Assembly (NCBI GenBank): GCA_030688685.1
Contig: JAUYJF010000038.1
Location: 1-47,188 of the forward strand
Source of the DNA: Candidatus Yanofskybacteria bacterium
GTDB taxonomy: Bacteria > Patescibacteriota > Minisyncoccia > Minisyncoccales > UBA10102
Length of the DNA stretch: 47,188 nucleotides
Reading direction: 5' to 3'
The position numbers and the translations under genes were made by a program. Below, one piece after another: positions 24,034-28,790 of this stretch; position 1 is the stretch's first letter, and the number at the start of each line of letters is the position of its first letter. Under the pieces are notes generated by a model. The model was not told the origin of the DNA, ran no database searches, and was given only the letters and a program-made list of their open reading frames with translations.

Positions 24034-24929
24034 CGGCTCTCCCGTAAGAGGTCAGAGAGCGCCTCTTTCAATTCAGGAAAAACAAAAGAATAGCCTGCCG
24101 CTTGTATCTTTTGCGAAGAGACTTTTTGGCTTGCGAGAGAAACATCCGCGAATTCCCCAAGGGCAAAGCGCATAACCCATGCGGGAATGCGCAGGAAGTG
24201 CGGGCGCCAGATCGCTCTCGCGAGAGCGGAGGAAAACTCCTTCTGGCGCACTTGGCGGGGAGCTGCGGCGTTATAAGCCCCTTTCAGAGACCTGTTTTCA
24301 AGAGCAAAGACATAGATGCCGATAATATCCTGAAGATGGATCCAAGGGAACCACTGTTTTCCGTTGCCCCAGGATCCCCCAAGCCCAAACCGGTAGAGCG
24401 AAAGAAGCTGGGCAAGCAGTCCCGCGGAAGCAAGCACAGACGCGGTTCGGACGCGCACGACCCGAATTCCTGCGCCTTGAGCGCCTTCCGCCTCCCGTTC
24501 CCACTCCACGCAAACTCCGGAAAGGAAATCAGAACCGGGAGAACTTTCCTCAAGAAGCTCCTCTTCCCCCCGATCACCATAAAAACCGACCGCGGAGGCA
24601 GAAACCAAAACCTCCGGCTTTCTGGGAAGCTTGCGCAAGGCAGCCACGAGATTGGAGGTTCCTTTGCTTCTGCTTTCCTTGATCTGCTTTTTGAGTTCAG
24701 GGTTCCATCTCCCAAATATGTTCTTTCCCGCGAGATGAACCACAGCGTCAACGCCCGCGAATACCTCCGCGGAAGGTTCTCTATCCGCAAGGTTTCCTTG
24801 GAAGAATTCTGCGTCCGCAAGAGAACTGGGGCGCATATCTAAAATGCGCACCGTATACCCCCGCCTGAGAAGCTCTTTCGTGAGGTGTGTGCCAATAAAC
24901 CCGGATCCGCCGGTAATGAGGACGCGCAT
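24030..24929 (-). CDS. NAD-dependent epimerase/dehydratase-family protein (YfcH/TIGR01777-like)
   Basis: Rossmann motif ITGGSGFIGTHL and a C-terminal DUF1731-like end. Confidence 0.75.
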   Translation of the reverse strand: MRVLITGGSGFIGTHLTKELLRRGYTVRILDMRPSSLADAEFFQGNLADREPSAEVFAGVDAVVHLAGKNIFGRWNPELKKQIKESRSKGTSNLVAALRKLPRKPEVLVSASAVGFYGDRGEEELLEESSPGSDFLSGVCVEWEREAEGAQGAGIRVVRVRTASVLASAGLLAQLLSLYRFGLGGSWGNGKQWFPWIHLQDIIGIYVFALENRSLKGAYNAAAPRQVRQKEFSSALARAIWRPHFLRIPAWVMRFALGEFADVSLASQKVSSQKIQAAGYSFVFPELKEALSDLLRESR

Positions 24930-24980
24930 GATTATAGTATACCCGACCGCTCTCTGATTCTAAATTCTGAAAGTTCCTGT

Positions 24981-25056
24981 TGGTGGACCGTACCGGGCTC
25001 GAACCGGTGACCTCCTCGATGCCATCGAGGCGCGCTACCAACTGCGCCAACGGCCC
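24981..25056 (-). tRNA. tRNA-Ala(GGC)
   Basis: Acceptor GGGCCGT/ACGGTCC with G3:U70, anticodon loop ATGGCAT. CCA is encoded. Confidence 0.9.
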
Positions 25057-25068
25057 TTTTTGTACCGG

Positions 25069-25140
25069 TGCCCCCGGCAGGAATTGAACCTACATCGACT
25101 CGTTAGGAGTGAGCCGTTCTATCCGTTGAACTACGGGGGC
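25069..25140 (-). tRNA. tRNA-Arg(CCU)
   Basis: Acceptor GCCCCCG/CGGGGGC, anticodon loop CTCCTAA (A31-C39 mismatch), T-loop TTCAATT. Confidence 0.8.
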
Positions 25141-25207
25141 CGAACAGTGGTTTTTTACCATATCCTAAACCATTTCACAACAGAAAGAAGCTTGTGGGAA
25201 ATGGGGG

Positions 25208-25235
25208 TTGACAAGTGTTCCTTGCTCCATATAAT
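25208..25235 (+). promoter_or_regulatory. strong sigma70-like promoter in front of structured RNA copy 1
   Basis: TTGACA (25208-25213), 16-nt spacer, TATAAT (25230-25235). The predicted start near 25242 lies ~9 nt before the closing helix. Confidence 0.6.
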
Positions 25236-25250
25236 AGGGTCTGTATCGCA

Positions 25251-25552
25251 GCACCCGCACTTACCATATTACATCAGTTTGAGAAGCGCGCTACCGAGAC
25301 AAACGCAAGGCGCGACGACAAAACCTGTACCCATAGGTACGTTGAGGAGGAGTCTCGCTTTGCGAGATCTCGCGCAGCGAGACAACGAAGCGGTTGGCCG
25401 GTAGCATGCTTCCCCGGAGGGACGCCGCGTTTTTGGCCATCTTCTTTGTTGCTCGTCTCTCGTGTGCCGTATGGCACACTTCGCTCCTCGCGCCGCGAAT
25501 CTGTCTCAAAATATACGGCGTTCAAACGATGAAATATGGTAAGTGCGGGTGC
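25251..25552 (+). ncRNA. unclassified structured RNA element, copy 1 (~302 nt)
   Basis: No credible ORF. A 20-bp perfect closing helix (25251-25270 with 25533-25552) is extended by 25272-25282 with 25522-25531. An inner helix pairs 25283-25296 with 25399-25412. Hairpins lie at 25327-25340, 25352-25383 and 25462-25479. Ordered sequence blocks are shared with the inverted copy at 25782-26040, and the helices differ by compensatory changes. I saw no RNase P, tmRNA, SRP or 6S signatures. Confidence 0.6.
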
Positions 25553-25585
25553 CCAAAGGTCGATACAAACTATATCTTATTTATT

Positions 25586-25717
25586 ATGGTATACGAAGAA
25601 GATTTGGAAGTTTCTTTGTTTGAAAGCGACGGAGAAGACGAGCTCGGTGGGGACGACGCGGAAGAGCTCGTAGAGGAAACGGATGACGACGAGGACGAAG
25701 AGGATGAGGAGCTGTAA
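25586..25717 (+). CDS. hypothetical hyper-acidic micro-protein (43 aa)
   Basis: ATG at 25586, TAA at 25715. The product is MVYEEDLEVSLFESDGEDELGGDDAEELVEETDDDEDEEDEEL, with 25 of 43 residues D/E and no basic residue. It lies between the RNA copies and directly upstream of a strong terminator. There is no SD, as for most genes here. Coding status is unproven. Confidence 0.35.
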   Translation: MVYEEDLEVSLFESDGEDELGGDDAEELVEETDDDEDEEDEEL

Positions 25718-25739
25718 ATCTGTCTTGAAAAGATATCTA

Positions 25740-25774
25740 CCCGCAGGGGCATTCGTGCCCTTGTGGGTTTCTTT
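25740..25774 (+). terminator. rho-independent terminator with UUCG tetraloop
   Basis: A 12-bp stem cccgcaggggca/tgcccttgtggg with loop ttcg is followed by tttcttt. Two G-U wobbles on the plus-strand RNA would be C-A mismatches on the minus strand, so it is plus-strand biased. Confidence 0.7.
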
Positions 25775-25781
25775 AAGGAGC

Positions 25782-26040
25782 GGAGGATCCCGAGCAAAAT
25801 CAATTGAGCGGAGCGAATACAAGGCAGATTCAAGGAGTGAGGAGCGATGTGTGCCGTATGGCACATGAGCGACGAACAACGCGGAAGCTGTTCTGTATGC
25901 GCCCGCCCCGCGGGGAAGCTCCCAGAGTGGCTGATTTCTTCGTTACTTCTCCTCAATGTAGTATATACTACCCTTTGTCGTCGCGCCTTGAAATCATCTC
26001 ATCTGGGAGCTTCTCAATCTGATTTGTGCTCGGATCCTCC
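25782..26040 (-). ncRNA. unclassified structured RNA element, copy 2 (~259 nt, inverted paralog of copy 1)
   Basis: The closing helix pairs 26013-26040 with 25782-25808 (~26 bp with bulges). An inner 12-bp helix pairs 26002-26013 with 25915-25926. Hairpins lie at 25958-25971 and 25850-25865. The block order matches copy 1 when read on the minus strand. It begins 11 nt after the 3' end of tRNA-His, so co-transcription with the two tRNAs is plausible. Confidence 0.55.
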
Positions 26041-26051
26041 TCTCCTAGGTG

Positions 26052-26125
26052 GGTGAGCGACGGGATTCGAACCCGCGATCTTCGCTGCCACAGAGCGACG
26101 CTTTAGCCGCTAAGCTACGCCCACC
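26052..26125 (-). tRNA. tRNA-His(GUG) with encoded G-1
   Basis: G-1 plus acceptor GTGGGCG/CGCTCAC, discriminator C73, anticodon loop CTGTGGC. Confidence 0.9.
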
Positions 26126-26140
26126 ATATATACTCTCTTG

Positions 26141-26212
26141 TGCTCCCACTAGGAGTCGAACCTAGATCCCAGGCTTAGAAGGCCCGTGCTCTATCCATTG
26201 AGCTATGAGAGC
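26141..26212 (-). tRNA. tRNA-Arg(UCU)
   Basis: Acceptor GCTCTCA/TGGGAGC, anticodon loop CTTCTAA, T-loop TTCGACT. Confidence 0.85.
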
Positions 26213-26228
26213 TCCGCATCCCGCAAAT

Positions 26229-26257
26229 ATTATATAATGAAGTCTCACTTTGGTCAA
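26229..26257 (-). promoter_or_regulatory. sigma70-like promoter for tRNA-Arg, tRNA-His and possibly RNA copy 2
   Basis: On the minus strand: TTGACC (26252-26257), 17-nt spacer, TATAAT (26229-26234). Confidence 0.5.
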
Positions 26258-26562
26258 TTGCCTTCAGATTCCAGCATCATCCGGAAAAGATCCCGGGAGC
26301 TTCTTGCTTCGGTTTGCTGAAACGTCCTTTCGCGTTCTTGCTGAATCTCCAGGATTGTTTGAAGCCGCTCTTCTTGGAACCGCATCCCAGAGGCCTCTGA
26401 AAGCGCGGGGGTTCTGGAAGAGAATCCATACACAAGAAACAACAGGACAGAGATCAGGAGGCCGAGCGTCGTGAGAATCAGGAAAAAACCAAGCGAGTGA
26501 TACCCTGCCTGGCGCACGAGTTTTTGCGCGTATTCTTTGATTGTTTCTTTTTTAATAGTCAT
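26254..26562 (-). CDS. small single-pass membrane protein, last gene of the pilus operon
   Basis: 102 aa with one TM helix (LGFFLILTTLGLLISVLLFLVYGF). Its start overlaps the PilO-like stop by 4 nt. No recognisable domain. Confidence 0.45.
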   Translation of the reverse strand: MTIKKETIKEYAQKLVRQAGYHSLGFFLILTTLGLLISVLLFLVYGFSSRTPALSEASGMRFQEERLQTILEIQQERERTFQQTEARSSRDLFRMMLESEGN

Positions 26563-27646: not shown

Positions 27647-28790
27647 AGGAAGGAGGCTGGATTCCGCGAAGCGCCAGACCAAGGGCAGTGGCATATCTTA
27701 GAGAATCCTCAAAATGGAGGGTGGGGATAACCTGCGCGCGATCCGGTAAAATATTCACCCATGGATTCGCAAGCTCAACTTGGACCCCCAAGGCGCTCGC
27801 GAGCCATGCGGGAAGACCTTTCAGATTCGCCGCCCCTCCGCACAGCATGACTCTCTGAACTCGGCTCTGCTCTTTCACAAGATGCTGATGCTGAGCGTGT
27901 GACGCGTAATATTCCATATACTTGCGCATGTGTTCTGCGAGATCGGAAAGAACCGGGACAAGAGCTTCAAATACATTGCGCCCTTCTTTGTCTTCGGGGA
28001 AAGCGAGTCCGTACGCGCGCTTCTTCTCTTCCGCTTCTTCCAAAGATATTCCCATGTACTTTGCGACAGCTTCCGTAAGACCAAACGAAGAAGCTTGCAA
28101 AGAAGTGGTAAAGCGCAGACTGTGCCCCGCAAAGACACTCAAGGACGTGCGCGTTGCCCCAAGATCTGCGACCAGGAGCGGCACAGGAGAGGTGTTGTTT
28201 TGAATGACGGCGCGGAGAACCGCGAGCGACTCTATCTCAAGAGCGATAGGAATCAATCCGACCTGGTCAAGAACCGCCACGTACGAATCCACCGTGCTCT
28301 TGGGAAGCGCCGCTAAAAGAATATCCAGGTGGTCAAGATGATTCTTCAGAGGAGAAACAATTTCATGGTCAAGATACACCGTTTCCAAAGGATAGGGTAC
28401 GTAGTTTTCCGCTTCAAAGGTCAGGGCCTCCCGCACTTGGCGCCTTTCCATGCGCGGAAGCTGGATCACCTGAAGAAACGCCTTCTCTTCCGGAAGAGAC
28501 GCAACCACATACGGAGTGCCCAAGGGCTCCCCCTGGACGCTCTGGCACGCGGAAATAATGGTACTGGCAAGCTGATCTTTATTCTGGACTTCCCCGTTCT
28601 TCACCAGCTCCTCTCCAACAGCATACTCTCCAAAAGAAGTGAGTGCTTTTGTTCCTTCTCGCTGAGAAAGCTTCGCAATTTTTAAGGTGAAATCCGAAAC
28701 ATCCAACCCAAACGCGTCCTGGTAAAGTTTTGAAAAACCCATGAACATTGATTGATTGTACCGCGTTTCGCGCACCGAACGCAATCTCAT
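27639..28790 (-). CDS. pilM: type IV pilus assembly protein PilM (actin-like ATPase fold)
   Basis: Motifs LLVADLGATRTSLSV and MLCGGAANLKGL. It is adjacent to PilN/PilO. The start may instead be an internal Met 14-16 codons downstream. Confidence 0.8.
   Translation of the reverse strand: MRLRSVRETRYNQSMFMGFSKLYQDAFGLDVSDFTLKIAKLSQREGTKALTSFGEYAVGEELVKNGEVQNKDQLASTIISACQSVQGEPLGTPYVVASLPEEKAFLQVIQLPRMERRQVREALTFEAENYVPYPLETVYLDHEIVSPLKNHLDHLDILLAALPKSTVDSYVAVLDQVGLIPIALEIESLAVLRAVIQNNTSPVPLLVADLGATRTSLSVFAGHSLRFTTSLQASSFGLTEAVAKYMGISLEEAEEKKRAYGLAFPEDKEGRNVFEALVPVLSDLAEHMRKYMEYYASHAQHQHLVKEQSRVQRVMLCGGAANLKGLPAWLASALGVQVELANPWVNILPDRAQVIPTLHFEDSLRYATALGLALRGIQPPSYD

Follow-up and report, generated by a model that had tools for sequence, protein, structure and literature searches.

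Eukaryotic prothymosin-alpha is a polyanionic, disordered protein of about 110 amino acids (aa), and is thought to act by its charge on basic nucleic-acid-binding proteins. Ocr, ArdA, Ugi and p56, carried by phages or plasmids, are folded DNA mimics whose charges form ordered arrays. In Firmicutes the RNA polymerase delta subunit (RpoE) has a C-terminal tail in which, as in region 1.1 of sigma-70, a tract of aspartic and glutamic acid residues (D/E) mimics nucleic acid and competes with it on the polymerase. The small protein modifiers Pup and UBact, of about 60 aa, are acidic and disordered. The open reading frame (ORF) described here, at positions 25586–25717 of the stretch of DNA under analysis (47,188 nucleotides (nt), contig C18 of assembly G000, termed the window), encodes a protein of 43 aa that has likenesses to all of these. 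Both in what it is and in how it is built, this ORF is probably an independently transcribed gene, one of an undescribed and unannotated family that extends through an order of Parcubacteria-type bacteria (candidate phyla radiation, CPR).

Members of the acidic family resemble prothymosin-alpha in their very high D/E content, in having almost no basic residues and in the absence of a predicted fold. They differ from it in being bacterial, in their chain length of 27–69 aa and in an N-terminal hydrophobic motif, and there is no sequence relation. With Ocr, ArdA, Ugi and p56 they share small size and acidity, but they are encoded at syntenic chromosomal sites and are predicted to lack a fold. 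The acidic tracts of RpoE delta and sigma-70 region 1.1 are tails of folded proteins, whereas here the tract is nearly the whole protein. An RpoE delta-like protein was considered and set aside: 39/39 members show no HARE-HTH and no Pfam domain, and only about 12–15 non-acidic residues stand before the tail. Small size, acidity and disorder are also found in Pup and UBact. Identity with these modifiers was rejected, as the C-termini of the 39 members differ and only the one encoded on contig C20 of the same assembly ends in GGE. A search for the Pup ligase (PF03136) in G000 (completeness 100) gave 0 matches, and a Corynebacterium control was matched.

The acidic micro-protein gene and its predicted transcription unit

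Assembly G000 originates from groundwater metagenome data and consists of 694,250 bases in 48 contigs (completeness 100, contamination 0.83). The elements at the locus are as follows.

25208–25235, plus strand: sigma-70-type promoter, TTGACA-16-TATAAT (12/12), with GGGG in front
25251–25552: "RNA copy 1", 302 nt, a dispersed hairpin-bounded structured repeat in the 5′ untranslated region (UTR)
25555–25563, plus strand: leader box AAAGGTCGA, kept in the leaders of relatives' acidic ORFs, ending 22 nt before the ATG
25586–25717, plus strand: acidic micro-protein gene, ATG 25586–25588 to TAA 25715–25717, 132 nt, 43 codons plus TAA
25739–25774, plus strand: intrinsic terminator, 13-bp stem (8 G-C) with a UUCG loop, hairpin at 25739–25768, T-rich tail

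The translated product, of roughly 4.9 kDa, is MVYEEDLEVSLFESDGEDELGGDDAEELVEETDDDEDEEDEEL, which contains 15 E and 10 D residues (25 of the 43) and no K, R or H. A preliminary description of this DNA, made from the letters alone, had reported 43 codons, 25 D/E and no basic residue, and recomputation from the sequence gives the same figures. The distance of 33 nt given there between the closing helix of copy 1 and the ATG is also found (the helix ends at 25552), and the 22 nt given between stop codon and terminator measures 21–22 nt. The order of promoter, structured RNA of about 300 nt, ORF and terminator proposed in the same place is present in the sequence as a set of predicted elements.

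The terminator had been placed at 25740–25774 with a 12-bp stem. A UUCG terminator is indeed present and is essentially the same, but its stem has 13 bp and occupies 25739–25768. The sequence 3′ of this hairpin is TTCTTT in the terminator scan. Positions 25715–25790 fold at −31.7 kcal/mol (z = −3.99), and 0/200 shuffled sequences fold as well. By eye, the stem has two G-T pairs on the plus strand, from which plus-strand specificity had been suggested, and these become A-C mismatches on the minus strand. Promoter-like sites number 5 in the region 24900–26400 versus 1.2 ± 1.4 in shuffles.

Public DNA contigs span positions 25094–25363 and 25357–25854 and display 0 differences to the window, the ORF included. 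Thus the assembly across the repeat, the ORF and the terminator is sound. No variant without the repeat was found among the public DNA contigs over the locus, and among the sequencing runs checked for 25150–26050 there is no RNA run containing the stretch.

Conservation and synteny

The acidic ORF is flanked by tRNA genes, which provide syntenic anchors.

24981–25056, minus strand: tRNA-Ala(ggc), alongside tRNA-Arg(cct)
25067–25140, minus strand: tRNA-Arg(cct), upstream anchor (ARAGORN, Rfam)
26051–26212, minus strand: tRNA-His(gtg) and tRNA-Arg(tct), downstream anchor (ARAGORN, Rfam)
26257–26229, minus strand: promoter-like site of tRNA-His/tRNA-Arg(tct)

All four of these tRNA genes are on the strand opposite to the ORF. 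From the 36 genomes of the taxonomic family to which the source organism belongs, 30 loci were fetched around tRNA-His/tRNA-Arg(tct). Ten of them contain both tRNA-Arg(cct) and tRNA-His, and in 10/10 a short acidic ORF lies between the two, on the opposite strand. The ORF is thus kept at its syntenic position in relatives, a comparison to which the preliminary description had pointed. Two further loci have an acidic ORF that is either beside tRNA-Arg(cct) or cut by the edge of the locus; the remaining 18 of the 30 contain no tRNA-Arg(cct) and show no acidic ORF. In the other acidic-ORF loci of this taxonomic family a near-consensus promoter is followed, after 9–53 nt, by (A)AAGGTC(G/A), then by an A/T-rich stretch without a Shine-Dalgarno (SD) sequence, and by the ATG.

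One example is found in the same assembly, on contig C20 (locus L052, C20:1–3800). This locus has tRNA-Arg(cct), an acidic ORF, tRNA-His and tRNA-Arg(tct) and is collinear with the window. Its ORF encodes 55 aa. The promoter word GGGGTTGACAAG, which is common to the window, the C20 locus and several relatives, precedes it, the leader word is AAAGGTCGA as in the window, and a terminator is present, but no repeat. Identity to the window is 64%–84% across C20:1–3800, and there is a 410-nt match of 64% identity to positions 28102–28510. The two loci were compared by eye, as the 300-nt insertion in the window disrupts a global alignment by MAFFT. The C20 locus is a diverged copy of the window locus, and comes from a co-binned relative or from an old duplication of the segment. 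When the whole assembly is scanned in six frames, only 4 stop-to-stop segments contain 18 or more D/E in a span of 43 residues, and the two highest of these, with 25 and 24 D/E, are the window ORF and the syntenic ORF on C20.

It should be noted that on C20 a convergent gene of about 500 nt is present between the acidic ORF and tRNA-His; by eye it is seen also in genomes G017, G005, G041 and G003. This gene is absent from the window, where a second copy of the repeat occupies its place.

The promoter and box were combined into a search pattern (TTGACA, 15–19 nt, TAWAAT, 3–33 nt, AAAGGTC), which matches 205/301 genomes of the order; a reversed control matches 5/301. Among the first 30 loci returned, what follows is an acidic micro-ORF in 10, groES in 10, a type IV pilin in 3, a KhpA-type KH gene in 2 and something else in 5. 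At the groES loci the box forms the CIRCE operator spacer; one of these ten, L078, yielded no ORF. In a sample drawn from the whole class, the pattern matches 12/13 other genomes of the same order and 43/287 genomes of other orders (control, 2/301), and an acidic ORF follows in 8/12 of the same-order loci and in 1/18 of the other-order loci. Acidic ORFs were found in 49 genomes in total, 48 of them within this order. Two matches of a profile search, described below, carry the source names Candidatus Wildermuthbacteria and Parcubacteria group.

Elsewhere in the order the neighbours are different. At nine loci examined, yebC-ruvC is upstream and tyrS is convergent in 5/9, and mreC is the neighbour in 3/9. 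Thus the tRNA context is specific to the taxonomic family of the window.

Coding signal

Coding tests were made with 39 clean members (27–69 aa, median 49; D+E 40%–67%; K+R+H median 3.6%). The D/E frame is open in all 39, and stop codons interrupt frame +1 of 37/39 members and frame +2 of 39/39. Of the 43 codons of the window ORF, 32 begin with G and 26 have A in second place, with position 3 evenly mixed. Four independent close pairs of ORFs display 29, 23 and 70 differences at codon positions 1, 2 and 3, respectively (chi-square 32.2, p = 1e-7). The best pair, L093/L094, shows 13 synonymous and 11 non-synonymous codon changes. The ORFs of the compared pairs remain intact despite indels, and in 35/39 members a run of four or more T residues is found at most 90 nt after the stop codon.

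The preliminary description had named broken frames in close relatives, or conservation at the nucleotide level only, as signs against coding. What is found instead is open frames and an excess of changes at position 3, and this favours coding. On this sequence evidence the ORF at 25586–25717 is very likely a real protein-coding gene.

Most members share an N-terminal motif, roughly M-[IV]-[YI]-[DE]-K-[LF]-x-x-P-[LF]-x-x-Q, which in the window ORF reads MVYEEDLEVSLFES. The acidic run begins after 10–15 residues. The conserved feature of the family is its acidity together with this motif.

Sequence and family searches

When the 43-aa peptide was searched by word index against 5.8 billion proteins, only the peptide itself came back. 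A profile built from 11 members gave 6 matches against 5.8 billion proteins and, by exhaustive HMMER search, 4 matches among 1.84 billion representatives; all have lengths equal to those of input members (in both of these searches identity was judged by length). A six-frame peptide search of the 35 other genomes of the taxonomic family gave no match. A profile of the 39 members, run over 301 genomes of the class, produced 1 weak match and missed the ORF of G000 itself; a profile search is thus blind to this composition. Even the window and C20 peptides are not significantly similar by BLASTP (E = 4.8).

Searches of Pfam, NCBIfam, PHROGs, PADLOC and PDB sequences gave no match for the acidic protein, and the ESM Atlas gave only unnamed clusters, at 0.79 or lower. 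When all 39 members were used, Pfam showed no domain, with four single chance-level matches (best E = 0.063), and PHROGs and PADLOC each gave 0/39. A literature search within a limited collection found no described acidic family and no SD substitute in these bacteria.

Several points weigh against the reading of these ORFs as one family of genes. Sequence methods cannot link the members, and because these methods fail the homology rests on synteny, on the shared promoter and leader, on the N-terminal motif and on composition. Transcription, the start codon and translation of the window ORF are all predicted from the DNA. Many of the position-3 changes are D/E swaps, so that the codon skew shows constraint on acidic codons and not classical purifying selection. 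In one genus, represented by three genomes, the ORFs differ by 1–4 codons, all of them non-synonymous, which are too few to judge. Finally, 20 further loci matching the search pattern all lead to acidic ORFs (26–69 residues as first called, one partly masked), but these loci were chosen for the look of their promoter and 20/20 is not a blind rate.

Predicted properties and proposed function

AlphaFold2, run with 39 sequences, gave a mean pLDDT of 63.8 and a pTM of 0.17, with no secondary structure and no fold. The family is one of short, very acidic and probably unfolded proteins in an order of ultra-small groundwater bacteria of Parcubacteria type (CPR).

The proposed unit would begin with a near-consensus promoter of sigma-70 type, followed by a leader that holds (A)AAGGTC(G), an A/T-rich stretch that has no SD sequence, the ATG and ORF, and an intrinsic terminator. 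Its product would be an abundant, intrinsically disordered polyanion. The N-terminal motif may dock on a partner, and the acidic tail may then mimic nucleic acid, or compete with it, on basic DNA- or RNA-binding proteins, in the manner of an "electrostatic chaperone" or nucleic-acid mimic. This molecular function, a docking polyanion that competes with nucleic acid, is put forward tentatively, as one possibility. It is drawn from the composition and from the company of promoter and leader. The promoter-plus-box arrangement also precedes groES, a KhpA-type KH gene, a type IV pilin and DUF2188 and, in G000, HU. It is this company only that suggests a high expression of the acidic gene; sharing its leader signal with groES, HU, pilin and khpA, the acidic protein is likely to be among the more abundant proteins of the cell.

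The main alternative is that the protein is real but acts in bulk, with no specific docking, as a cation or polyamine buffer or as a solubility shield similar to the "Hero proteins". The tail is free in sequence and keeps only its composition (lengths 27–69 aa, D+E 40%–67%), there is no predicted fold, and the likely highly expressed company includes groES; all of this would suit a polyanion acting in bulk. The conserved N-terminal motif, by comparison, suggests a specific contact. The bulk role is considered rather unlikely.

It may also be asked whether the act of translation matters and not its product, in which case the D/E micro-ORF would be a sensor that works by destabilising the ribosome, like the Mg2+-sensing leader peptides. 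Acidic residues in a row, sometimes with prolines, are reported to destabilise ribosomes during translation (10.1101/2021.02.02.429294, PMC9718836, PMC11162784). The ORFs of the acidic family are likewise short and D/E-rich with some prolines, and have an acidic run that starts after 10–15 residues. Unlike such leader peptides, the acidic ORF here has no gene downstream in the same transcription unit, and the terminator follows 21–22 nt after the stop codon. A T-run comes after the stop in 35/39 members. In addition, the N-terminal motif is kept as a protein sequence, for which a pure sensor would have no need. A sensor ORF is therefore improbable, and a regulatory leader peptide (upstream ORF) was rejected on the grounds that a terminator comes after the stop codon and the next genes are on the other strand.

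The acidic family is a concrete target for studies on the handling of nucleic-acid-binding proteins in these organisms. CPR/Patescibacteria genomes are tiny and have many unannotated genes, and this family is kept across an order. Sequence searches miss it because of its composition, and tryptic proteomics cannot see the product, because it has no K or R (and the family almost none).

The leader box and translation start

The 3′ end of the 16S rRNA gene in G000 is ...GGGGAACCTTCGCTTGTAATTTTTC, with no CCTCC anti-SD sequence. Thus the missing SD sequence in the leader of the acidic ORF is no objection to coding. A search of the assembly for the ribosomal protein uL1 (PF00687) did not find it. 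About half of Parcubacteria, for the most part those without uL1, are reported to lack the anti-SD (PMC9297842), and the features of G000 agree with this subgroup. The same paper treats the conservation of 16S helix 26 in Parcubacteria as unexplained, and places this helix next to where the SD helix would sit.

Two observations can be added on these genes. The 16S gene (C46:3888–6313, minus strand, locus L056) holds an insertion of about 720 nt. On contig C44, rplK is followed by a copy of the repeat and dcd, in place of rplA.

The 8 nt in the loop of 16S helix 26 are complementary to the box (A)AAGGUCG(A). This loop is UGUCGACC in G000, and among the stretches listed for 115 genomes of the class a single one departs from U(A/G)UCGACC. 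The box might replace the lost SD/anti-SD pairing for a few very highly expressed genes, with the acidic protein as an abundant polyanionic buffer or chaperone, but this is doubtful. A match of 5–6 bp to some 16S loop has a chance probability of 0.04–0.15 by a rough estimate. Both box and loop are invariant, and there is no covariation to read. Furthermore, AAGGTC is upstream of 14/741 genes in G000, versus 11 for its complement, and is not enriched; on the same count AAGGTC was rejected as a general upstream signal in this genome.

Two other readings of the box were tried. AAAGGTC is not an SD sequence, as it lies 23–139 nt from the ATG and the groES starts are known. A degenerate CIRCE in the leader of the acidic ORF was also set aside; the likeness is 6–7 of 9, was seen by eye in two genomes, and none is found in this family. 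The leader box bears on how translation starts in Parcubacteria that lack the anti-SD and on why helix 26 is so conserved there (PMC9297842).

The repeat in the leader

RNA copy 1 belongs to a repeat of roughly 270–300 nt that is dispersed in the genome. The copies and the related palindrome that are referred to below are as follows.

25352–25383: 32-nt palindrome (GTCTCGC...GCGAGAC), nested in copy 1
25776–26046, minus strand: "RNA copy 2", the same repeat inverted, directly downstream of tRNA-His, not part of the gene
C46:376–612, opposite orientation to the rRNA: copy in the 23S rRNA gene (C46:1–1353, on the other strand)
C46:1418–1676, opposite orientation to the rRNA: copy just upstream of the 23S 5′ end
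C44:12504–12748, antisense: copy between rplK and dcd
C21:46643–46950: a further copy

Copy 1 is bounded by a closing helix (25251–25275 with 25528–25552, 25 nt, 96% complementary), and the leader at 25242–25620 folds at −166.2 kcal/mol (z = −9.7). Copy 1 matches DNA on 12 contigs of G000, at contig ends in 7 of them; at several such ends the repeat interrupts the assembly. An alignment of seven copies, about 270 nt long, shows conserved core blocks and a closing helix that varies in sequence and keeps its pairing (covaries). Thus it is a structured repeat and not a simple remnant of an inverted-repeat transposon. One copy lies before the HU gene, and the copy in the 23S gene is in a gene of 1353 nt for 1049 model positions. 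The places and orientations of the copies, which are in or near the 23S gene, antisense between rplK and dcd, before HU and after tRNA-His, do not fit one regulatory role. Rfam does not match the repeat, either at gathering thresholds over the window or at E up to 10 over 25130–26060, where the palindrome alone gave a chance-level microRNA match.

The distance from the −10 box to the leader box is 319 nt in the window, of which 302 nt are repeat, compared with 9–53 nt in 10 other full loci of the taxonomic family. The repeat is therefore read as an insertion in the 5′ UTR. (In the order-level members found by the search pattern this distance is at most 33 nt by construction of the pattern.) No repeat was noticed in the leaders of these 10 loci, with C20 and G003 compared by alignment or BLAST. 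The repeat is missing from 9/11 other loci of the taxonomic family; G003 has a hairpin only, and G008, which has a long leader, is outside the comparison. A search of 41 relatives, counting G000, showed repeat-like DNA in 6, and in two of the six only the 32-nt palindrome matched.

From these sequence comparisons it can be said with good confidence that the repeat in the acidic leader is an insertion and not a dedicated regulator. With copy 1 between promoter and leader box, the mRNA would carry about 300 nt extra, as a very stable leader structure. The closing helix would bring the 5′ end of the transcript next to the leader box, and copy 1 may be removable by RNase III, by analogy with rRNA intervening sequences.

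The preliminary description had proposed that copy 1 is a riboswitch- or attenuator-like leader for the peptide, or that the peptide is a specific partner of the RNA. The location of copy 1 between promoter and ORF and its very stable fold would fit such a leader, and the covariation of the closing helix between copies indicates a structure under selection. Two findings count against the repeat as a plain insertion. A short hairpin related to the closing helix is present at the same leader position in G003 (locus L139, G003:C23:13300–14400, reverse, about 700–770), between the promoter and the AAAAAGGTCGA box, and in G000 the leader box comes within a few bases after 3/7 repeat copies. They would be compatible with some looser link between repeat and box. 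On the other side, the box follows 0/8 copies in G003, G018 and G033, and a repeat that targets the leader box was rejected on this comparison. Neither proposal could be upheld. As a cis-acting leader, copy 1 is a member of a repeat dispersed over 12 contigs, with a copy in the 23S gene in opposite orientation and one antisense between rplK and dcd; it is absent from most loci of the taxonomic family and has no Rfam match. As for an RNA partner, the peptide family is present in 49 genomes versus repeat-like DNA in 6/41 relatives. A dedicated role of copy 1, in either form, is thus very unlikely, and the locus illustrates that what looks like a striking "structured leader" may be an inserted repeat.

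Of the 6 other aligned copies 5 lack the 32-nt palindrome, and the C21 copy carries it at another place; G025 and G001 have it by itself. It is a further insertion in copy 1 and resembles a separate small mobile hairpin.

Remaining explanations and neighbouring features

The extreme acidity and small size of the protein recall a DNA-mimic factor for anti-restriction or anti-defence that originated from a mobile element. This is very improbable, because the synteny is chromosomal and conserved (the tRNA cluster here, yebC-ruvC-[ORF]-tyrS or mreC elsewhere) and because PHROGs and PADLOC give 0/39; a folded charge array is not predicted either. That the ORF is not a gene, and only a GA-rich tract open by chance in one frame, would agree with the absence of an SD sequence and of homologs in standard searches, but has hardly any probability given the frame open in 39/39 with stops in the other frames, the three-base periodicity and position-3 excess, the position and ATG context with N-terminal motif conserved across 49 genomes, and the rank of the window and C20 ORFs as the two most acidic six-frame segments of the assembly.

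An antisense ORF of 128 aa, rich in serine, at positions 25570–25956 was set aside, as it extends into copy 2, which relatives lack. The window as a whole (1–47188) contains 19 tRNA genes in 47 kb, in several clusters and on both strands.

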